A DNA stretch of 64,000 nt, taken from positions 32,001 through 96,000 of IMG/VR virus record IMGVR_UViG_3300009184_000033. One strand, 5' to 3'. Below, piece after piece: positions 47,657 through 63,353 of the stretch. Made by a program: the position numbers and the translations under genes. The notes below the pieces were generated by a model. That model searched no databases, was not told the origin of the DNA, and was given only the letters and a program-made list of their open reading frames with translations. Position 1 is the stretch's first letter. Every line of letters starts with the position of its first letter. This DNA is from a virus.

Positions 47657-48973
47657 TTATAGTTCTCTGCTTGCCAAAGTTGCAAGAGGAGAACGTTCGC
47701 CACGGTCAAGCTTTATGTGTCCAAACAGCTCGTTGCCCTTCAGCTTCTCGATTGCAATTGCGAGGCCGTTTGAGTGGCGGTCGAGGTACGGAGTGTCAAC
47801 CTGGTCAGTGTCACCAAGCAGGACAATCTTTGTCCCTGCGCCACATCGAGTCACAATTGTCTTGATCTCATGGATGCTCAGATTCTGAGACTCATCGACA
47901 ATCACATAACAATTGTTGAAGCTTCTTCCTCTGATGTAGCTTACCGGCGAGATTTCGATGTTTCCCTTCTGGCGCATCATCTCAAAGTAGGACGGGTCAT
48001 GGAATGCGCTCCTGAAGTTGTCAATGATGGGCATCAGCCACGGTGCCATCTTGTCGTCGATAGTGCCGGGTAGGAATCCGAGGTCGCGACCGACAGGTTC
48101 GATGGACCTCGTGATCACAATCCTGTCGTACACCTTGGCGTTGAGACCTGACATGCCGGCAACAAGAGCCAAGAAAGTCTTTCCAGAGCCGGCTAGCCCC
48201 GTGAGGCTTACCAGTGGAATGTCCTTGTTGGTGAGCAGGTGGAGCGCCGCGGTCTGCTCCTTGCTTCTCGGCTTCACGCCGATCGACTGCTCCATGAACA
48301 TCTTCGGCTTCACTACCTTTCCCTTGTTGTAGATGCCGATGAATCCCTTCTGCGGATCAATGTCGCTAGTCGCATGGACCAGCTGGTTCTCATAGAGCAC
48401 CACCTCTGGATCAATGAGCTCGACCTCTCCGTCTCGGTAGAAGTCATCCACATCTCTTGTGGTCACGTCGATTGAGCACTGACCAGTGTATGCCTCTGAT
48501 CCGTCTCGATAAGCCTTGGGGATGTCCGTGTAGTAGTCCTCGGCGCGGACACCGAGGGCATCGCACTTGACTCTGAGATTTATGTCCTTGGAGATGACTC
48601 TGACTTCTCGGTCAGGATTCTGCGACTTGATGGCCAGTGCGACAGCGACGATCTTGTTGTCGCCCTTCTCGATAGGAAACTCGACTGGCGTGGCATCTTC
48701 CTCGACAGGAACCCGCTCGACTCTGATCACAATGTCGGTGTTTGGAACCTGGACTCCGTCATGCAAGCTGCCAATCTTACGGAGCGAGTCGAGGAATCTA
48801 TTGACCTCTCTCGCGGCAGATCCAATCTGCTCCTTCTTCTCCTTGAAGCGGTCGAGCTCTTCCAGAACGATCAGGGGAATGATAACATCGTTCCCGTGGA
48901 AGAACTTTAGCGAATTCGGATCGTACAGCATCACACTAGTGTCGATTACTAGAAGCTTTCTCTGGTTCAACAT
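47657..48973 (-). CDS. phoH: PIN-PhoH fusion (PhoH2-type ATPase/RNase)
   Basis: PIN: VIDTSV...LEELD...DNKI...SKDINLRVK. PhoH: GLAGSGKT, YIRGRS, IVDESQN, RCG...K.VLLGD..Q.D. Confidence 0.93.
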   Translation of the reverse strand: MLNQRKLLVIDTSVMLYDPNSLKFFHGNDVIIPLIVLEELDRFKEKKEQIGSAAREVNRFLDSLRKIGSLHDGVQVPNTDIVIRVERVPVEEDATPVEFPIEKGDNKIVAVALAIKSQNPDREVRVISKDINLRVKCDALGVRAEDYYTDIPKAYRDGSEAYTGQCSIDVTTRDVDDFYRDGEVELIDPEVVLYENQLVHATSDIDPQKGFIGIYNKGKVVKPKMFMEQSIGVKPRSKEQTAALHLLTNKDIPLVSLTGLAGSGKTFLALVAGMSGLNAKVYDRIVITRSIEPVGRDLGFLPGTIDDKMAPWLMPIIDNFRSAFHDPSYFEMMRQKGNIEISPVSYIRGRSFNNCYVIVDESQNLSIHEIKTIVTRCGAGTKIVLLGDTDQVDTPYLDRHSNGLAIAIEKLKGNELFGHIKLDRGERSPLATLASREL

Positions 48974-52664: not shown

Positions 52665-53171
52665 TTAAGCAGCGTTAGTAAATGCATTTTTGGTCTTTTT
52701 GTCCGCGAGACAGCTGGCAGCCCAAGACTCTGGCTTGATGATCGGCTTGAAACCCATTCCCTGGACATATGACTGGAGGCTCTTCTGGCAAACAGAAGAT
52801 CCAGCAGAAGGGTCACTGTTGCAGTCCAGGTGGACTGAGATGTCGAGGCTCTCATTTCTGTCGCGAAGTGTCTGGGCAACTTCAAGCGAGTGTGAAGTCT
52901 CGAGCTCCAGCCTCTTCCTGAGATTTGGCACAGAGCTCTTCATGATCTTCTCTCGAGACCAGAAGTACTTGCCACCACGTCCAGGTCGATAGAGGGCAAT
53001 CACAGTGACGAAAGAGACCTGCTTGCCCTTGGGGTCAGAGTCAGTTCCAACGTGGAGCTCAGCACCGCTCGAGATTTCTTCAAGGACCTGGTCGATGATT
53101 TCATTGAAGTCGTACTCGACCTGAGCTCCAGAAAACCAGTTTCTGTCCTGAATGTTCTTATCTGGTATCAT
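52665..53171 (-). CDS. Ribonuclease H-like YkuK (DUF458) family protein
   Basis: HVGTDSD, RLELETSHSLEVA, VHLD, and ASCLAD. Confidence 0.8.
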   Translation of the reverse strand: MIPDKNIQDRNWFSGAQVEYDFNEIIDQVLEEISSGAELHVGTDSDPKGKQVSFVTVIALYRPGRGGKYFWSREKIMKSSVPNLRKRLELETSHSLEVAQTLRDRNESLDISVHLDCNSDPSAGSSVCQKSLQSYVQGMGFKPIIKPESWAASCLADKKTKNAFTNAA

Positions 53172-54468
53172 TTGCGATCACAGCTCCTATCTTTCTCATG
53201 GAATCTGCCAGCTCAGTGCCAATCTTCATTCCACTAACCAGAGATCCAGCTGGCAAGGACCTAATTTTAGGTAGCAGATCAGAGGTGGAAATTCCCTCAA
53301 CGTCTCCTGCTGAGATTCTACCCGTCAAACAGAACCCGTTTACGATCCCAAGCGCAGAACGTATGCGGTCTTCGATAAGTCCAGACATCTCACCAACGCT
53401 GCGACCCAGCCAGATCTCAACAACGGCAGGGTTTAGGTTGGCCGCTCGATCCTCAAAGAGCTTACGCTTGTCTTCGACTTGCTCGCTTGCAGCCTGATCC
53501 AGAAGCCACCTGGCGTGTTCCCAGACGCTGTGGGAACGTTCAGGATTTTCGATAGTGCACTCTCTTACGCTAGACACGATCCTCTTGACGCTTGGAATTT
53601 CTTCTAGCTTTATGCTCGAGATCAGGTCGCCCTTGAGCGGCGAGACAGCCGAATGACCAATGCATACGCAAAGGTCACGGATCAAGTTTATCGTATCCAA
53701 GCTCGTGGGCACAATGTGCGGAATGACCCTCAGAGACCCTCTGAGGTAGTTCACTGCAAGTGTGTGGATTACTTCTGGTTCGAATCCCCGGGCAAACAGA
53801 AACAATCTGCGTTTGGTCTGTGAGTATGATTCGAGTATGTGGTTGATCTCTGAGACGGTGGTGACTACTCCATCGATTGCAGCAACGTCACAGTCGAGAA
53901 AATCAAAAGTCTTCTGGCCAGAGCCCTGGCAGAAATTTGGATCGACCCCAGCTCCAAACCTGTAGCCCTCGTGGACTTTGATTCTGATGTCGAACTCATC
54001 AGATCTCTTCAGGCGAATTGTGCCAGAACTTCCCGCGGCGGCAAGGGCTTGTCTAACCACCGCGGTGGTGATGGGGCATGATGAGACATGAGATAACGCG
54101 GCATTGAGCTCATCTATGTCCATGAACCTCGAAGTGTGGCTGATCTCATGCAGGTCCTTTTTACCAGATCCGAGATAAGATGACACGAATCCGCAGACCA
54201 CAAAATAGCTGGATCCTGGAATCTTCCTCTCGGCTGAGACAATCGCCTCAATGAGCGCAGCCCTACAAGACCTTGCTGACATTGAATTCGCACGCTGTTC
54301 GTGGACGACACGAAGGCAATCAAGGTACTCGAGCCTCTCAGCGCGATTTCCAAATGAGACTGTGAGATGGCCATCACGAAGCTTCTTCACCGAAGCCTCA
54401 AGAGACTCAACCCATGAACGGATCTCGTCGTGGTGCTGGTCTCCTGAGATGGGAAGGCTATTTTCCAT
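53158..54468 (-). CDS. Highly divergent GroEL/Cpn60-like protein lacking ATPase motifs (436 aa)
   Basis: EGYRFGAG corresponds to EGMQFDRG; RLFLFARGFEPEVIHTLAVNYLRG to [30 protein letters not shown]...VEIWLG to ERVAKL...AVIKVG. Confidence 0.75.
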   Translation of the reverse strand: MENSLPISGDQHHDEIRSWVESLEASVKKLRDGHLTVSFGNRAERLEYLDCLRVVHEQRANSMSARSCRAALIEAIVSAERKIPGSSYFVVCGFVSSYLGSGKKDLHEISHTSRFMDIDELNAALSHVSSCPITTAVVRQALAAAGSSGTIRLKRSDEFDIRIKVHEGYRFGAGVDPNFCQGSGQKTFDFLDCDVAAIDGVVTTVSEINHILESYSQTKRRLFLFARGFEPEVIHTLAVNYLRGSLRVIPHIVPTSLDTINLIRDLCVCIGHSAVSPLKGDLISSIKLEEIPSVKRIVSSVRECTIENPERSHSVWEHARWLLDQAASEQVEDKRKLFEDRAANLNPAVVEIWLGRSVGEMSGLIEDRIRSALGIVNGFCLTGRISAGDVEGISTSDLLPKIRSLPAGSLVSGMKIGTELADSMRKIGAVIANDTR

Positions 54469-54740
54469 TAGTTGACGCTCTCGTTCTTGTTTTTGACAAA
54501 GCTCGAGAGATTTATCGCAGATCCACGCTCCGCAAGTTTAGAAGTCAATGATTCCACTGTCTTGCTGAGGATCTCTGCCTGATTCTTCTTCTCCTGAGAG
54601 ATGTAAGCAAGCCTGAGGAAAGATCCCGCAGATCCCACAGTGATGAGGGACCACCCAGGAATGACCTGACCAATCCCAAGCAGCGCAATACCGCCCGCAA
54701 CCATGATCTCAGGTACCCCAATTGTAATGTTCATTGACAC
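54468..54740 (-). CDS. Small membrane protein (90 aa)
   Basis: Two short hydrophobic segments at the N-terminus; AGGAG Shine-Dalgarno. Confidence 0.6.
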   Translation of the reverse strand: MSMNITIGVPEIMVAGGIALLGIGQVIPGWSLITVGSAGSFLRLAYISQEKKNQAEILSKTVESLTSKLAERGSAINLSSFVKNKNESVN

Positions 54741-54781: not shown

Positions 54782-54812
54782 AAAAACTGAAATGGCCCGC
54801 CGAAGCGGGCCA
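54782..54812 (-). terminator. Rho-independent terminator after prkA
   Basis: TGGCCCGC-TTCG-GCGGGCCA followed by TTTCAGTTTTT on the minus strand. Confidence 0.85.
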
Positions 54813-54827
54813 GTCCAGGGCTAAATA

Positions 54828-56768
54828 TCAGCTATCGCGCCACAGGTTGTTGCTGGCAAAGGTAAGGACCTCTTCCGCAGACTCCGGGGTGTATCCGTAC
54901 TCGTCAACCATCGTGGTGATCATGTTGGAGTACTTCTTCTGCTGCTCGTCGTCCCTGGTCTTCGACTTGGTAACGATGCGCGCCATGTCCTTGACGGAGG
55001 CGATTAGGTAGCCCTCGATAGCCTCCTTGAGCGGCTCATAGGAGGTGTAGCTCACCTTCTCGTTGCGACGCATCTTGGCAAACATATAGGCGGTGACGTC
55101 TGACCTGAACCCGTCTCGAGAGGAAGCCACAATGCCGATCTGCTCCTCGATTGCTCGCATGAACTTCTCGTCAGGCTCACGCTCCTCTCTTGTGACTCGA
55201 TCCTTGATCTTCTGGCGAGTGGTGTGGGCCTCGGCATTGTCAAGGTAGTTGTCAAACAGGGACTGTGCTTGCTCCTCGTAGGCCGTCACAAACGCCTTTG
55301 CGATCTCGGTCTCGAGGATCTTCAGGTACTCCTCGCGGACGACCTTCTGGATGAGCTCAAGGCACCGGGTGCGGAACTCTTCGTCGATTACCTGCTCCTG
55401 CACCTGCTTGGTGACTGCGGACATCACCGAGATGGGCGTGATGAAGCTCTTTTCGGAATCAGAGAGCGCGTTGTCAATTGCCTTCATGATGAATCGGGTC
55501 GAGATGCCATTCATACCCTCATCACGGGACTCCTCACGGAGGTCCTTGATGTCGATCTTCTTGACCCTGCCCTTCTCGATCACTTCCTCACCGTTGTAGA
55601 TCTTCATCTTTGTCATGATGTCGCACTTCTGGGTCGGCTTCAGGCGGCTCATCACGGAGAACATCGAAGCGACCTTGATCGTGTGAGGGGCAATGTGCGC
55701 CTTGAAGTCAGACTTCTTGAGGATCTTCTCGTAGATCTTCATCTCCTGCGCCAGCTCGAGGACATAGGGGACGTTGATCTTGACGATTCGGTCGAGGATC
55801 GCCTCGTTGGTGTGCTGCGCGCGGAACCGGTTCCACTCGGCCTCGTTACAGTGCGCAAGGATCACACCATCGAAGTAGATCATGTCGTGCTTGCCAGGGG
55901 ACGGGACTCGCTTCTCCTGGGTGGCAGTGATGATAGTGTGGAGGAACTCGATCTCGTTCTTGAAGACTTCGACAAGCTCCACGATGCCACGGTTTCCGAC
56001 GTTGAACGCGCCGTTCAGGGACAGGATGCGGGGATCGTCCTCAGAGAACTTGTCAAGCTTTGAGATGTCCTCAGAGCCGATAAGGACCGATACGTCCTGC
56101 GAGTTTGCATCCATGGGCGGGACCACTGCAACACCACGACGAGCGCGCTGTGAGAACGTAGACTGTACGACCTGGAACTTCTCGTACTCGCCCTTGTACT
56201 TCTCGAGGAGGACGTGGCGGGCAACGGGACTGAGGTCACCCTCGATCTTCACGCCAAGCAGCTCTTCGAACTCTGGACGAAGGGAGCGGGGGATGAGCTG
56301 GAGAGGCTCTCCGCGCTGGGGGTCGTCCTTGAGGTGGTAGAACGGCTCAGCGTGCTCCACCGCCTTCTTTATGTGTTCTGCAAGGGCAGACTTGCCGGAA
56401 CCGACAGGACCCATGAGGAGCAGGACCTGGCGGCTCTCCTCACCCTTGAGGGATGCGGACTTCAGGAAGCGCATGATCTTTGCAATGACTCGCTCATGAC
56501 CAAAGAACTCGTCCTTGAAGTACTCGTAAAGCTTCAGGTTGTCACCGTCAAAGACCTTACGCTTGCGCGGGTCCTCATCCGGTATGATAGAGACTCCGAA
56601 ACCCTCGATGGTATCGTTGAGTCGCTTGTGGGCGTGCTTCACAACGCCCGGGTTATCACGGACCAGGTCGAGGTACTCAAGAAAGTTACCCTCGAACTTG
56701 GTGTCCGACTTGTTGTCCCTCTGGCTCTTGATGAGGTCGAGAAACTTGTTCTTGCTCTTATCCGACAT
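54828..56768 (-). CDS. prkA: PrkA/YeaG-family AAA+ serine protein kinase
   Basis: Walker A GPVGSGKS, LNGAFNVGNRGIVELVEVFK, NEAILDR, GMNGISTRF. ATG 56768 has GAGG upstream (a GTG at 56774 is the alternative start). Confidence 0.96.
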   Translation of the reverse strand: MSDKSKNKFLDLIKSQRDNKSDTKFEGNFLEYLDLVRDNPGVVKHAHKRLNDTIEGFGVSIIPDEDPRKRKVFDGDNLKLYEYFKDEFFGHERVIAKIMRFLKSASLKGEESRQVLLLMGPVGSGKSALAEHIKKAVEHAEPFYHLKDDPQRGEPLQLIPRSLRPEFEELLGVKIEGDLSPVARHVLLEKYKGEYEKFQVVQSTFSQRARRGVAVVPPMDANSQDVSVLIGSEDISKLDKFSEDDPRILSLNGAFNVGNRGIVELVEVFKNEIEFLHTIITATQEKRVPSPGKHDMIYFDGVILAHCNEAEWNRFRAQHTNEAILDRIVKINVPYVLELAQEMKIYEKILKKSDFKAHIAPHTIKVASMFSVMSRLKPTQKCDIMTKMKIYNGEEVIEKGRVKKIDIKDLREESRDEGMNGISTRFIMKAIDNALSDSEKSFITPISVMSAVTKQVQEQVIDEEFRTRCLELIQKVVREEYLKILETEIAKAFVTAYEEQAQSLFDNYLDNAEAHTTRQKIKDRVTREEREPDEKFMRAIEEQIGIVASSRDGFRSDVTAYMFAKMRRNEKVSYTSYEPLKEAIEGYLIASVKDMARIVTKSKTRDDEQQKKYSNMITTMVDEYGYTPESAEEVLTFASNNLWRDS

Positions 56769-56777
56769 TGACACCTC

Positions 56778-58088
56778 TCAGATTTCGAAGGGTTCGCCTT
56801 CCAAAGTTGTTAGGAGCTTGACTTCGCTCTTCCAGATTTTTGATACGTGGCCTATGACTTTTTCTGCGTAATTGATCTCTAGATCTCTGCCATCGTGCTC
56901 GTGGTGAAGCACAAGAACGTTTCCCTTGTCGATCGATTCAACATAGATCGTTGGTATCGTATTTGCGCCAACTTGCCTGATTAGGTTATGCTTCACCTCT
57001 TTCCAGCCCATCTCATCAGAGACATCCTCGACAACGTAGTTCTCCTTCTTCCTGCCGTAGGAGAAAAGGTTCAGCTCCTCGCACATCTCTTGGGTGAGGT
57101 AGTTTCTGATGAAGGACTCATCGTTGCACGCCTCTCTTGCGATGAAGCATTCCTCTAGTCCCATACGCTTCTCTATATCGTGAAACATGTGGAAGCCGAG
57201 GTGGTAAGGATTGATTGATCCGATCGCGGGTCTGATGACCTGGTTGTGCGACTTGATGAATGGAAGGTGAAGTTCAGGCGGGAGATTGAGCTCGTGGAGG
57301 ATCCGGTAGTGCCAGTAGCTGGCCCAGCCCTCGTTCATAATCTTGGTGCGGATCTGCGGCATGAAGTACTGTGACTCAGTCCTCACAATGTCGAGAACGT
57401 CCCTCTCCCAGTCTTCCATGTTTGCGTGCTCGCCCAGGAATCCCAGAACATCGTACTCCTTCTCCAGAGGAACCTTCTCGAGGCTGTCCATTGAGACCTT
57501 GAGTCCGCGTTCCTTCTGCTCCTTGAAGCGTAGTATCATCTCCTTCTTCTTCACAGAGTGAGGAATGTACTCCTTCGGGAAGCGGTAGGTCTGGAACTGG
57601 ATTGCGTGCGCAGAATCCAGTAGCTCCTCCACCTTGATGATTCCAATGCTTGGGTCCTCGATGTAGCCCTGGATGCGCTTTCTGGCATTCCTAAAGCGGT
57701 GCACAATGATGTCCGGCTGGGTGCTGGAGAACATCCTGTTGTTCTTGAAGAAGTCACTGTGGCCAACACAGTGCGCCATGATGAGCACCTGCAGGTACAG
57801 AGGATTCTCCCGCATCAGGTAAGCAATGCTGGGATTCGAGTTGATGATGAGCTCGTATGGAAGACCCTCAGCACCAATGTTATACATCTGCTGAGTGCGC
57901 TCGAAAGACTTTCCGAAAGACCAGTGCGGGTAGTGGCTCGGCATGCCGTGGTATGACATGTGGCCCATCATCTCGTAGTAGTCGCAGGTCTCGTACACAA
58001 TTGGAAACCAGTCGAGATTGTGGCTCTCTGCGATCTCAATGATCCTCTTATCGTATTCTTCCAGTTCCTTGAAGGTCCAATCTGACAT
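56778..58088 (-). CDS. spoVR: SpoVR/YcgB family protein
   Basis: GMPSHYPHWSFGK, YELIINSNP, HCVGHSDFFKNN, PQIRTKIMNEGWASYWH, NPYHLG, L.H.HDGRDL. Confidence 0.96.
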   Translation of the reverse strand: MSDWTFKELEEYDKRIIEIAESHNLDWFPIVYETCDYYEMMGHMSYHGMPSHYPHWSFGKSFERTQQMYNIGAEGLPYELIINSNPSIAYLMRENPLYLQVLIMAHCVGHSDFFKNNRMFSSTQPDIIVHRFRNARKRIQGYIEDPSIGIIKVEELLDSAHAIQFQTYRFPKEYIPHSVKKKEMILRFKEQKERGLKVSMDSLEKVPLEKEYDVLGFLGEHANMEDWERDVLDIVRTESQYFMPQIRTKIMNEGWASYWHYRILHELNLPPELHLPFIKSHNQVIRPAIGSINPYHLGFHMFHDIEKRMGLEECFIAREACNDESFIRNYLTQEMCEELNLFSYGRKKENYVVEDVSDEMGWKEVKHNLIRQVGANTIPTIYVESIDKGNVLVLHHEHDGRDLEINYAEKVIGHVSKIWKSEVKLLTTLEGEPFEI

Positions 58089-59257
58089 TAAAGCTTCCCT
58101 CCAAAGAATGACTTGAATGCTGGCCAGATGTCTTTCGGCGTGTTGATGTTGGCGATCTTGAAGTTGCTGTCCTTGAGCGGCTGGAGCAAGTTTCCGAGCA
58201 TCGAGTCGTTGTGAGCCCAGCGCATCTTGTCCTTCTCAGGCTCAATCTCACAGTAGCCGTACAGCTGGCACAGTGGCTTTAGCACTCTGAGTCGCTCAAG
58301 GAGCTTTGGATTGTCGTTGGAGAAGTTGTCACCGTCGCTACACTGGAACGCATAGATGTTCCAGGCGGACTGGTGGTACCGCTTCTCAATGATCTGGCTC
58401 ACCATCTCGATTGCCGGCGAGACCGTGGTGCCGCCAGAGGATCCGCGCTTGAAGAACTGGTCTTCCGTGACCTCGTAGGCGGCGGTATCATGGGCAATGA
58501 ATACGATCTCGGTGTTCTCATACCGTGAGCGTACAAAGTGGTATAGCAGGAAGAAGAAGCTCCGTGCGAGATACTTCTTCTCATCGGTCATCGAGCCTGA
58601 CACGTCCATGATGAAGAAGATCACGGCGTTCGAAGAGGGCTGTGAGACCTGCTTGATGTGCTTGTAGCGCAGGTCGTCATCATTGAACGAGAAGCTCTCC
58701 TGCTCCTCTGGATCATAAGAGCCGCTCGACTTTGCCACGTTTCGCCGGCGGAGCATGCGCTTCACCGTCTCCTTCTTATCAAGCCTGGGCCTGATTCCCT
58801 CGTTCCTGTAGCCGTGGCGCTTTGGCTTCTCGGTGATGATCTGCTTTAGGGACTTCTTCTCCAGCTCGGGAAGCTCTAGGCTATCGAAAAGGTAGTGTGC
58901 GAGCTCTTCGAGCGTGATCTCGACCTCGTACACTTCCTCACCAGCATCCTCGCCGGCCTTTCCTGGCTTTCCCTTCTGGGGCTTTCCGGCACTGCCGACC
59001 GTCTGTCCCCTGGATACGTCCTTTCCTGGAGCAGAACCGACCTGGCGATTTCCATTATCGCCATAGACGAATCGATACTCCTTGATGCCCTTCACGGGAA
59101 TCTTGATCTTCTTCTTACCGTCCTGACCTATGATCGACTCATCCGCGACTATGTCGTGGATTCCGTCCTTGATTGCCCTATCGATCTTCTCTTTGTGACG
59201 TCGGCGGTCAGAAGCCGACCTGTCAGCGGAGGTCTTGTGCTCTTTGAAAACGGACAT
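58088..59257 (-). CDS. yeaH: YeaH/YhbH (DUF444) vWA-domain protein
   Basis: DRRRHKEK, MIDAS-like MDVSGSM, SSGGT, WNIYAFQCSDGDN, and YGYCEI. Confidence 0.95.
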   Translation of the reverse strand: MSVFKEHKTSADRSASDRRRHKEKIDRAIKDGIHDIVADESIIGQDGKKKIKIPVKGIKEYRFVYGDNGNRQVGSAPGKDVSRGQTVGSAGKPQKGKPGKAGEDAGEEVYEVEITLEELAHYLFDSLELPELEKKSLKQIITEKPKRHGYRNEGIRPRLDKKETVKRMLRRRNVAKSSGSYDPEEQESFSFNDDDLRYKHIKQVSQPSSNAVIFFIMDVSGSMTDEKKYLARSFFFLLYHFVRSRYENTEIVFIAHDTAAYEVTEDQFFKRGSSGGTTVSPAIEMVSQIIEKRYHQSAWNIYAFQCSDGDNFSNDNPKLLERLRVLKPLCQLYGYCEIEPEKDKMRWAHNDSMLGNLLQPLKDSNFKIANINTPKDIWPAFKSFFGGKL

Positions 59258-59262
59258 ACCAA

Positions 59263-59269
59263 TAAGTAT
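59263..59269 (-). promoter_or_regulatory. Candidate late-promoter motif ATACTTA
   Basis: 6 nt upstream of the yeaH ATG, which has no Shine-Dalgarno; overlaps the NUDIX stop codon. Confidence 0.4.
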
Positions 59270-59721
59270 CAGGTTCTGAGCGAGTATAAACTCTCGTTGC
59301 TCTTCAGTATGTCACGGGCCCAAACAACTGCTGGCTGAAGGTAGGGGTGAAACTTATCGTGGTCGGCCTCAAGATCAAGCCACTTGAGTCCGTGATGCTC
59401 GAGGATTCCGGTCTTCTCGTTCTTCTTGATCTTTGCGTCCTTGCTGGTCACCGCAATATAGAGAGTCAGGTGCTTGACTTTGAGGCTGAGATCTCCGAAT
59501 GGCATCTCGCCGTCTTCGATTAGGATGTCAGCCTCCTCAAAGCACTCTCTCTTTGCCGTGCTAAGAAGCGGCTCGCTGTTGGAGTCCACGCCACCCTTGG
59601 GTAGATCATAAGTGCTGTAGAACCTGAGCCCCAGCACTTTCCAGCCGTCATCAAACTTTCGCAGGACTACAAATCCTGCTCCAGGACGCCGCTCCCTCTT
59701 ATTGCTCCCGCGAGTAGTCAT
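59269..59721 (-). CDS. NUDIX hydrolase
   Basis: PKGGVD...E......AKRECFEEA Nudix box. Start uncertain; ATG 59721 was chosen. Confidence 0.88.
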   Translation of the reverse strand: MTTRGSNKRERRPGAGFVVLRKFDDGWKVLGLRFYSTYDLPKGGVDSNSEPLLSTAKRECFEEADILIEDGEMPFGDLSLKVKHLTLYIAVTSKDAKIKKNEKTGILEHHGLKWLDLEADHDKFHPYLQPAVVWARDILKSNESLYSLRT

Positions 59722-60040
59722 CTTCAAGCCTCACTACATCGTTGATTTCAGGGGTCGAGACTTCAATCAGCTGGACATCACCATCGTAAGCACAGAACCT
59801 GTGGACCGTCTTTGGAGTCACGTGAAACGTGCTTCCCTCAGTGTATTTCCACTTGTTCTCGCCCTTGGCTCCGACTTCGATTGTGAGAGTTCCACTGAGA
59901 ACCCTGATTGTCTCGTCCTTGATATTGTGGTACTGACGGCTCAGACGGTGGCCATTCTTGATCACCAGAATCTTTCCAAGGTACTTGGGGTTCTCAGCCC
60001 AAATCTCTTCGTGTCCCCATGGCTTATTTACGATTCTCAT
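59699..60040 (-). CDS. Cupin, mannose-6-phosphate-isomerase-like
   Basis: KPWG, LSRQYH..K.ET..VLSG, and HRF. Start at ATG 60040 (ATGA overlap). Confidence 0.85.
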   Translation of the reverse strand: MRIVNKPWGHEEIWAENPKYLGKILVIKNGHRLSRQYHNIKDETIRVLSGTLTIEVGAKGENKWKYTEGSTFHVTPKTVHRFCAYDGDVQLIEVSTPEINDVVRLEDDYSREQ

Positions 60041-60516
60041 TTCTTCACCTTTGAGACTAGATCTGATGACGACTGGATCTTGCCGCCGCCAATTCCAAAT
60101 ACCACATCGCACCCAATCTTTGAGCACAGCTCAAACTCTGGAACGTTCTGCGCCGTGTCTCGGTCTCCACCCTTTGTGAAATAGTTCGGCTTTAGAGCAT
60201 CAATTGCGCCAACCACGGTCTGTGATCCATCATCCCACGGTACAACATAGTCGACTCCTCGGACACCGTCGATTATCTCCATGCGCTCTTCATCGGGCAT
60301 GAAGGCATAACCCTTCTTCCTGAGGAGAAATCCGTCTCCGTTCACAATCACGACCGTTACGCCGCCCTCTTTGCTTGCCAGCCTGGCAGTGTCAAGAAGG
60401 CAACGAAGGTGTCCGACGTGCATGGGATCAAATCCGCCGCTCGTAGCCCAGACCTTCTGGTTTGGGTGGAATTCGCTGAGCACATCTCGCAGGTGCTCGA
60501 CATTCTTGCAGATCAT
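60037..60516 (-). CDS. Cytidylyl/adenylyltransferase (HIGH-motif; RfaE/TagD-like)
   Basis: TSGGFDPMHVGH, ERMEII..V..VD, KGGDR, and SSS. Confidence 0.9.
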   Translation of the reverse strand: MICKNVEHLRDVLSEFHPNQKVWATSGGFDPMHVGHLRCLLDTARLASKEGGVTVVIVNGDGFLLRKKGYAFMPDEERMEIIDGVRGVDYVVPWDDGSQTVVGAIDALKPNYFTKGGDRDTAQNVPEFELCSKIGCDVVFGIGGGKIQSSSDLVSKVKK

Positions 60517-62155: not shown

Positions 62156-62183
62156 ATTATACCACGCGTAAATCGCTTTTCAA
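62156..62183 (-). promoter_or_regulatory. Sigma70-like promoter with extended -10
   Basis: TTGAAA-16 nt-TATAAT with a TGn extension (TGGTATAAT), 12 nt before the helicase GTG. Confidence 0.7.
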
Positions 62184-62969: not shown

Positions 62970-63353
62970 CTACTCGACGGAGATGATCCGCTTCACGCTC
63001 TTCTGGACGGGGACCTCGACATAGAGGATGCCGGCGTCATACCGCGCCGAGATTCCATCCTGCGCGACGTTCTCACCGAGAGTCCAGGACCGGGAGTATG
63101 TGGACTTGGTGCCGTTCACCTCACGGTTACCGGTGACGGTGAGGCTGTCGTGCTCGGTGGAGATCTCAATGTCGGAGCGGCTGAGGCCCGGCATCTCCAC
63201 GGCGATGGAGTAGCCCTTGTCGGTCTCATTGATCTGAGCACGCGGCATCAGGGCAGTCGTCTTACGAGCGTACCGGTCACTGCGCTCATCGAGGAACGAG
63301 TCGAGGAAGGTGTCGAAGCTGGCATAGGGGCTGCGATTCACGATGCTGAACAT
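62970..63353 (-). CDS. Small heat-shock protein, Hsp20/alpha-crystallin family
   Basis: VEMPGLSRSDIEI, YSRSWTL, and SARYDAGILYVEVP; AGGAG Shine-Dalgarno. Confidence 0.93.
   Translation of the reverse strand: MFSIVNRSPYASFDTFLDSFLDERSDRYARKTTALMPRAQINETDKGYSIAVEMPGLSRSDIEISTEHDSLTVTGNREVNGTKSTYSRSWTLGENVAQDGISARYDAGILYVEVPVQKSVKRIISVE

Follow-up and report, generated by a model that had tools for sequence, protein, structure and literature searches.

An uncultured marine lineage of jumbo myoviruses possesses homologs of three bacterial genes, yeaH (yhbH), spoVR (ycgB) and prkA (yeaG, spdA), as a compact trio that is transcribed in that order. The trio is described here from a window of 64,000 nucleotides, the whole stretch of DNA that was analysed, corresponding to bases 32001-96000 of the 132,044-bp IMG/VR virus record IMGVR_UViG_3300009184_000033. 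An initial interpretation made from the sequence without database searches (the sequence-only reading) had ranked the trio as a candidate for an undescribed system, a view that must be abandoned because phage trios have been annotated in Thermus phages since 2006, in PHROGs, in Ralstonia phage RsoM2USA and in 600-kb phages; the module is a known one, and the trio is a well-documented variant of it rather than a system of a new kind. Four features make it of interest: a lineage-wide fourth gene, an apparently convergent re-ordering of the operon, extreme conservation, and a direct tie to a 2026 result on protein turnover. The best reading of its function, which we hold tentatively and at slightly less than an even chance, is that of a late-expressed protein-turnover machine like YeaG/SpdA of Escherichia coli, which would recycle the proteins of nutrient-poor hosts to the benefit of a large phage that grows slowly. 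A literature search on phage PrkA and SpoVR returned only the annotation table for RsoM2USA, and no paper studying the module in any phage was found.

Gene content and organization of the trio

All three genes are full length and have intact Walker A and metal ion-dependent adhesion site (MIDAS) motifs, as the sequence-only reading had stated, on the evidence of full-domain Pfam matches and invariant motif columns (Table 1). The AAA_PrkA domain and the C-terminal domain of PrkA score 453.5 bits and 275.8 bits, respectively, against curated cut-offs of 25, and each protein of the trio has a PHROG family of its own (19072, 35217 and 22605). The Walker A sequence of PrkA is GPVGSGKS, and residues G122-S129, E266, E269, N310 and R329 are invariant across the phage homologs, those of Thermus phages included, and the bacterial homologs. 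The MIDAS of YeaH (DVSGS with a downstream Thr and Asp) is represented by D218, S220, S222, T277 and D308, which are invariant in 34 homologs, and the invariant residues of SpoVR include H55, E79, H106, H110, E154, D158, E253, H260 and H281. PrkA also matches a protein of known structure, PDB 9xip, annotated as a serine protein kinase (E 4.7e-93). The entries 9xip, 9xiq and 9xir are solved structures of a 692-aa 'serine protein kinase' of the PrkA family, comprising 30 chains in three entries, and no paper describing them turned up in a literature search.

The genes of the trio are translationally coupled. The stop codon of yeaH and the start codon of spoVR overlap by one base, and the overlap or gap between these genes is 0-8 nt in nearly all relatives; the distance from the spoVR stop codon to the start of prkA is 3 nt if translation begins at GTG or 9 nt if it begins at ATG. 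The order yeaH>spoVR>prkA is closed by a UUCG terminator, also as previously read.

Table 1. Features of the trio and its surroundings, in window coordinates.
Feature	Coordinates	Strand	Evidence and remarks
yeaH/yhbH homolog (DUF444), 389 aa	58088..59257	-	C-terminal von Willebrand factor A (vWA) domain with complete MIDAS; Pfam PF04285 E 2e-114, 383 bits; phrog_19072
spoVR/ycgB homolog, 436 aa	56778..58088	-	Pfam PF04293 E 7e-124, 414 bits; SpoVR_C PF24755 30.9 bits
prkA/yeaG/spdA homolog, 646-648 aa	54828..56774	-	N-terminal AAA+ and C-terminal PrkA domains; Pfam PF08298 E 6.6e-136, PF06798 E 5.3e-82
Intrinsic terminator	54783..54812 (hairpin 54812-54793)	-	8-bp stem (7 GC pairs), TTCG loop, T-rich tail; 15 nt past the prkA stop
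ATACTTA, copy of the ATAnTTA motif	59263..59269	-	5 bases (TTGGT) before the yeaH ATG at 59257
Sigma-70-type promoter	62156..62183	-	TTGAAA-16-TATAAT, TG-extended, 11/12; before the helicase, cytidylyltransferase and NUDIX genes
GroEL-fold protein, 436 aa	53158-54468	-	phrog_5725 E 2.5e-10; AlphaFold2 model, predicted local distance difference test (pLDDT) score 88.4
Small hydrophobic open reading frame (ORF), ~88-90 aa	54468..54740	-	Separates prkA from the GroEL-like gene; the ATG at 54734, preceded by GAGGAG, is the likely start
Cytidylyltransferase-like (NMNAT/FAD-synthetase-like) gene and NUDIX gene	59269-60516	-	Immediately 5' of the trio; syntenic in many relatives
RNaseH-like protein	52665-53171	-	PF04308; 3' of the GroEL-like gene; conserved in the lineage
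PIN-PhoH fusion	47657-48973	-	PF13638 and PF02562; 3' of the GroEL-like gene; conserved in the lineage
Hsp20/alpha-crystallin gene	62970-63353	-	PF00011 E 3.4e-16

Acquisition and rearrangement of the trio

A megablast search of the region against GenBank phages gave no match, so the virus has no cultured near relative; PrkA occurs in just 17 GenBank phage records, always with less than 33% identity. Relatives are found in IMG/VR (44 loci, 69-95% identity) and by the thousands, at about 75-80% identity, in a collection of 5.8 billion proteins, on contigs as long as 292 kb, with Tara Oceans samples among the sources. The order yeaH>spoVR>prkA is present at every viral locus of the lineage that spans the genes (about 45 related contigs), and three further loci that were reached independently through PhoH have the same arrangement. 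Among bacteria, 79 of 79 loci, fetched from contigs of one genome per species, are arranged prkA>yeaH>spoVR, which bears out the earlier statement that prkA usually comes first; the phage trio is a cyclic permutation of this arrangement that puts prkA last. Gene order is customary in the family rather than part of its biochemical definition. One relative (L049; NHDW01000006.1, 305,838 bp) has been binned as the metagenome-assembled genome (MAG) 'Methylococcaceae bacterium TMED69', and possesses the phage synteny from helicase to PhoH, the permuted trio and the GroEL-like gene; in all likelihood this contig is the nearly complete genome of a jumbo phage of this lineage, wrongly binned.

The bacterial loci fall into two subtypes. 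PrkA of the canonical YeaG type is 33-36% identical to that of the phage, and subtype 2 (L050-L075), from MAGs labelled Binatia, 'delta proteobacterium', Udaeobacter, Geminicoccaceae and Gammaproteobacteria, has 50-58% identity to the phage in PrkA, 38-50% in YeaH and 40-46% in SpoVR. Maximum-likelihood trees contain a marine phage clade for PrkA, YeaH and SpoVR (support of 99, 90 and 99, respectively, in the Shimodaira-Hasegawa-like approximate likelihood ratio test, SH-aLRT), and this clade is sister to bacterial subtype 2 with SH-aLRT support of 95, 97 and 68 in the same order. The ratio of nonsynonymous to synonymous substitution rates (dN/dS) is 0.03-0.04 for all three genes, compared with the nearest relative, and PrkA is more conserved within the lineage (69-79% identity) than the neighbouring helicase (51-65%). 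The phage clade, the low dN/dS and the conservation of PrkA indicate that the trio is an old, single, en-bloc acquisition and not a recent capture from a host, the alternative that the sequence-only reading had wished to see distinguished by phylogeny. The trio does not nest among recent host sequences with the same gene order, nor does it lack linkage to the GroEL-like gene.

That the trio should be a passenger or bacterial contamination with no role in the phage is hardly credible. The record of Enterobacter phage LAU1 does end with host yeaG-yeaH, and one relative was binned as a Methylococcaceae MAG, but that 305-kb contig has phage synteny, and the phage-specific clade and gene order, the at least 45 syntenic viral contigs, the dN/dS of 0.03-0.04, and the baseplate, fibre and PhoH genes that flank the trio on the same strand all contradict this explanation, which was rejected on the grounds of phylogeny, synteny and dN/dS.

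Thermus phages possess a trio in the same order, and a common origin of the permuted order in Thermus and marine phages was considered and rejected: joining the two clades costs 62.8 log-likelihood units, with p 0.0003 in the approximately unbiased (AU) test, a value to be read in light of the long branches and of the group having been named after the tree was seen. Because the test separates the two clades, phages seem to have evolved the order yeaH>spoVR>prkA on two or more occasions, and the re-ordering in the two groups is apparently convergent.

The GroEL-like neighbour

The gene at 53158-54468, which the sequence-only reading had called a pseudo-GroEL, encodes a protein that had no match to Pfam (Cpn60) at E 0.01 and that has the three-domain fold of GroEL by both structural and profile comparison. 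An AlphaFold model matched GroEL along the whole chain (Foldseek E 6.6e-25, about 530 alignment columns), and a family profile of 21 members matched the GroEL structures in PDB with E 1e-33. In the profile alignments the position of the ATP-binding GDGTTT loop reads G-y-v-f, that of the catalytic D398 is a weakly conserved Lys, and the N-terminal equatorial part aligns poorly. Because the TTT loop and D398 positions are not conserved, the protein has probably lost its nucleotide site and is probably ATP-blind.

In a census made with a family hidden Markov model (HMM) over six-frame ORFs of the fetched loci, the GroEL-like gene was found directly 3' of prkA at 35 of the 39 lineage loci with enough downstream sequence, and it was absent from all 79 bacterial loci and from the Thermus-phage and huge-phage loci. 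At 16 of 37 loci, the GroEL-like frame has its first in-frame start either 5' of the prkA stop or no more than 20 nt away from it, although the real start may lie further 3' in some of these. The linkage between the trio and the GroEL-like gene, which the sequence-only reading had proposed to trace across jumbo phages, is thus real and lineage-specific, though wholly within one broadly syntenic family. A sub-clade (L030, L032, L033 and L034) in which the GroEL-like gene is missing and the genes 3' of prkA are on the opposite strand constitutes a natural 'minus-GroEL' variant for comparison. In the window, the GroEL-like gene is not part of the transcription unit of the trio, because the terminator and a 90-aa ORF intervene after prkA; relatives with this small ORF are L005, L009, L013 and L046 only. 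A 616-aa ORF between spoVR and prkA in Thermus phage TMA was considered as a GroEL-like partner and rejected, having no Pfam domain and only its own PHROG.

Transcription signals

The sequence-only reading had placed an ATACTTA motif, interpreted as a candidate late promoter, 6 nt before a yeaH start without a Shine-Dalgarno sequence. The motif stands, and no Shine-Dalgarno sequence was seen in the TTGGT spacer, but the spacing is 5 nt; the motif overlaps the stop codon of the preceding NUDIX gene by its first A, which is the final base of that codon. Counted over all 132 kb of the record, ATAnTTA has 23 copies on the coding strand and three on the other; 14 of the 23 coding-strand copies are within the non-coding 4.6% of the record, and 13 are located 5-35 nt ahead of the first start codon of an ORF that is 60 aa or longer (binomial P 6e-11). 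The genes preceded by ATAnTTA include those of a 1005-aa fibre-like protein and of 869-aa and 687-aa proteins, as well as the gene that precedes the baseplate wedge, an ORF of 1026 aa and a set of genes with an MRITE leader. Variants of the motif (ATACTTA, ATATTTA, ATAATTA and ATACATA) are found 5-15 nt before yeaH in many relatives, divergent ones included. Since ATAnTTA is strongly biased in strand and position relative to starts and precedes structural genes, among them fibre, baseplate and sheath-sized ones, the copy before yeaH is a credible candidate late promoter, as had been supposed; the motif behaves like the single-element late promoters of T4, with an A/T-rich -10-like sequence and no -35 box.

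The 5-nt distance between motif and ATG leads to the prediction that the yeaH message may be leaderless or nearly so. The same spacing occurs at only one other gene in the record, a 1260-aa ORF outside the window (G000:C1:117338-117344, minus strand; ATAATTAcaggtATG), and this pair of genes suggests a small class of leaderless late messages. A promoter of the sigma-70 type was also identified (Table 1), and the minus strand showed no terminator-like site between the helicase gene and yeaH, so earlier read-through into the trio from this promoter is possible. A second late-type motif, ATATTTA at 54822-54828 on the minus strand, overlaps the prkA stop codon directly 5' of the terminator hairpin. 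A transcript from it would start with the hairpin; this may be due to chance, or the hairpin may be a 5' stabiliser for the message of the small ORF and the GroEL-like gene.

Possible functions of the trio

PrkA/YeaG-YeaH-SpoVR is among the most widespread poorly understood stress modules of bacteria, and its role in starvation survival and protein turnover is known from bacterial genetics alone (PMC13684143, PMC4664914). In work from 2026, the largely non-specific breakdown of cytoplasmic protein that starvation induces in E. coli was found to depend on the gene yeaG, renamed spdA; this breakdown yields amino acids and ATP for new synthesis (PMC13684143). PrkA of Bacillus subtilis has been reported as an ATP-dependent protease for which the Walker A lysine is needed (PMC9512850), and PrkA has been placed in clade III of the AAA+ proteins, like YME1 (PMC13001217). 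The sequence-only reading had offered two functional options, host signalling and late morphogenesis; the work on YeaG/SpdA points to a third and more specific one, bulk protein turnover (PMC13684143).

In the mechanism that we infer, with proteolysis and recycling, the partner roles and the timing all proposed by analogy, a jumbo-myovirus lineage would have captured PrkA(YeaG/SpdA)-YeaH-SpoVR once, as a unit, from a bacterium with one particular subtype of the module, and the captured module would have been re-ordered to yeaH>spoVR>prkA and extended by an ATP-blind GroEL-fold protein under strong purifying selection. PrkA would be an ATP-driven AAA+ motor, YeaH its MIDAS-vWA adaptor, and SpoVR a zincin-like partner that lacks the catalytic Glu; together they may drive broad turnover or unfolding of cytoplasmic proteins, mainly those of the host, to provide amino acids and energy for virion synthesis. 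The GroEL-like protein would bind non-native substrates or shield phage proteins. Transcription would proceed mainly from the late ATAnTTA promoter, with a possibly leaderless yeaH message, supplemented by read-through from the sigma-70-type promoter.

A late protein-turnover machine is supported by the intact motifs and the coupling of the genes, the single phage clade that each protein forms, the permuted order, the low dN/dS, the late-type motif before yeaH, the reports on PrkA of E. coli and B. subtilis, and the zincin-like model of SpoVR. Several points weigh against it. Highly purified PrkA of Bacillus anthracis had neither protease nor kinase activity, and the authors suggest that the activity of B. 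subtilis PrkA was possibly due to a contaminant (PMC13001217); the results from E. coli, B. subtilis and B. anthracis taken together suggest that PrkA is a motor that needs partners for proteolytic or remodelling output. The degradation flux in E. coli is just a few percent per hour. SpoVR, the putative peptidase-like partner, was modelled with AlphaFold2 (pLDDT 84.6), and a Foldseek search of PDB with this model found nothing significant. On the supporting side, exhaustive VIA alignment of the model with 48,161 chains gave a best 50 that are nearly all zincin peptidases (M1, M3, M32, M4, M9, M61 and DUF885 among them) with Z 11.3-6, although Z values of 8-11 can occur for helical models without homology. 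The H106-x3-H110 pair is invariant, within AH[C/V/A/S]xGH, in 37 of 37 SpoVR sequences, and the catalytic Glu of the HExxH motif of zincins is never present in them, so SpoVR may be a pseudo-peptidase. Its model makes SpoVR look like a zincin without the Glu, which would be a hydrolase of an unusual kind or else a pseudo-enzyme, and beside the PrkA motor it brings to mind an AAA+/zincin pairing of the FtsH/YME1 kind split over two genes; a literature search found no paper on the structure of YeaH or SpoVR or on a link between SpoVR and zincins. The late-type promoter that the trio shares with virion genes also fits a morphogenetic role, and so does the location of the trio of Thermus phage Lalka8 between portal/minor-head and terminase (TerL) genes.

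Such a role in morphogenesis or proteostasis, in which the AAA+/vWA pair, SpoVR and the GroEL-like protein would fold, remodel or mature the large virion proteins of the phage late in infection, is possible but rather unlikely. Besides the promoter and the Lalka8 locus, it is supported by the coupling of the GroEL-fold gene to prkA in many relatives, the location of the trio near terminase in TMA, and the independent evolution of the order yeaH>spoVR>prkA in Thermus phages (AU p 0.0003). The bacterial module has no known assembly client, though; the trio proteins do not have the N-terminal cargo leader of the putative head-internal proteins of this genome, and their neighbours in the window are helicase, NUDIX, RNaseH-like and PhoH genes and not a structural block. 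The comparison with MoxR-type remodelling chaperones, including that of tail development in the archaeal virus ATV, which the sequence-only reading had cited, turns out to be conceptual only, PrkA having no MoxR-type Pfam match and being placed in clade III (PMC13001217). A more elaborate version of the turnover idea, which we consider unlikely, is a four-part, split FtsH-like degradation machine, with PrkA as motor, YeaH as adaptor, the Glu-less SpoVR, and the ATP-blind GroEL-fold protein as substrate trap, with which the virus would break down host proteins in bulk late in infection and so feed the making of virions; the same order, evolved independently in Thermus phages, would in that case be due to a demand peculiar to phages on how the complex assembles.

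Signalling by PrkA as a serine/threonine kinase, which would reprogram starvation, dormancy or sporulation-like responses of the host so as either to keep it metabolically active or to impose a starvation state, is improbable. The phage PrkA has kept the whole C-terminal 'kinase' domain, YeaG of E. coli has been reported to phosphorylate both itself and AceA (as cited in PMC9512850), and the PhoH and NAD-related neighbours suggest manipulation of host physiology; against this, PrkA of neither B. subtilis nor B. anthracis was found to have kinase activity, the P-loop of the kinase is degenerate (PMC9512850, PMC13001217), late expression is poor timing for reprogramming a host, and the strict co-retention of YeaH and SpoVR and the addition of a GroEL-like gene would be left unexplained. 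Decidedly improbable, too, is a targeted function in counter-defence or takeover, whereby the machine would unfold or remove particular proteins of the host, for instance regulators or defence factors, instead of its bulk proteome: AAA+/vWA pairs as a rule act on specific clients, a specificity factor could be provided by the GroEL-like protein, and several unrelated phage groups have captured the trio independently, but no defence or anti-defence context was seen around it, and the 69-79% identity that PrkA keeps in phages whose hosts must differ speaks against a target engaged in an arms race. None of the sequence evidence is decisive in separating these readings.

The retention of all three proteins, under very strong constraint, by a large and abundant family of ocean jumbo phages argues for their acting as one unit that is useful to the virus. 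The natural variants in phages, with a fixed pseudo-GroEL partner, an operon re-ordered twice and a minimal promoter context, could help to dissect the bacterial machine. If the recycling of host proteins is confirmed, protein turnover will join nucleotides, phosphate and NAD among the host resources mobilised by marine phages.

Genomic context

The record is 39% complete according to CheckV, so the full genome should be about 300 kb or larger. Nearly all of its long ORFs are on the minus strand, and the presence of baseplate-wedge, tail-fibre-like and PIN-PhoH genes marks it as a phage of the myovirus type. The neighbourhood that its relatives have in common consists of the helicase, the cytidylyltransferase-like gene, the NUDIX gene, the trio, the GroEL-like gene, a 152-aa ORF and PhoH; the cytidylyltransferase-like and NUDIX genes may be a salvage pair for NAD or nucleotide sugars. 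The Hsp20 gene, which the sequence-only reading had proposed as a partner of the trio, is real (Table 1) but only loosely syntenic with it: Hsp20 is located within 10 kb on the 5' side of prkA at 10 of about 45 related loci, and at L040 the match is 3' of prkA.

Comparison with known systems

The closest known system is the bacterial prkA(yeaG/spdA)-yeaH(yhbH)-spoVR(ycgB) module of subtype 2, which consists of the same three adjacent families with full-length domains and invariant Walker A, MIDAS and SpoVR HxxxH motifs. In the 79 bacterial loci prkA comes first and there is no GroEL-fold gene, whereas the phage copy is virus-encoded and located behind a late-type motif. With cellular GroEL and the phage GroEL homologs of phrog_5725, the neighbour of the trio shares the fold along the whole chain and well-conserved apical and intermediate domains, but it is about 110 aa shorter than GroEL and is paired with prkA rather than with a GroES gene. 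The likeness to MoxR-vWA pairs does not extend to the motor domain, for which the AAA_5 match of PrkA is sub-threshold (19.2 bits against a cut-off of 22) and there is no AAA_3 match. The AAA+ zinc proteases of the FtsH/YME1 type share with the trio a clade III AAA+ motor (PMC13001217) and a zincin-fold partner, as a functional analogy alone with no homology claimed; in the trio, the motor and the zincin-like protein are encoded by separate genes, the HxxxH motif has no catalytic Glu, and there is no membrane anchor.

Among phages, the Thermus phages phiYS40, TMA (L003), phiLo (L133) and Lalka8 (L134, 72 kb) carry a trio in the same yeaH>spoVR>prkA order, labelled 'conserved bacterial protein/vWA', SpoVR and 'serine kinase/AAA ATPase'. 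Their proteins are 29-33% identical to the marine ones and form separate long branches, no GroEL-like gene is present, and TMA has the extra 616-aa ORF between spoVR and prkA. Ralstonia phage RsoM2USA and the 595-642-kb uncultured phages LR756502, LR756504, LR745206 and LR756511 are jumbo or huge phages that possess prkA and yeaH, with spoVR detected in all but the LR756502 locus; they have the bacterial gene order and no GroEL-like partner. PrkA of LR756511 groups with the Thermus phages on a long branch, and the PrkA proteins of RsoM2USA and of the 630-640-kb phages LR756502, LR756504 and LR745206 nest in the canonical proteobacterial YeaG clade, from which it follows that these four represent separate captures of the module.

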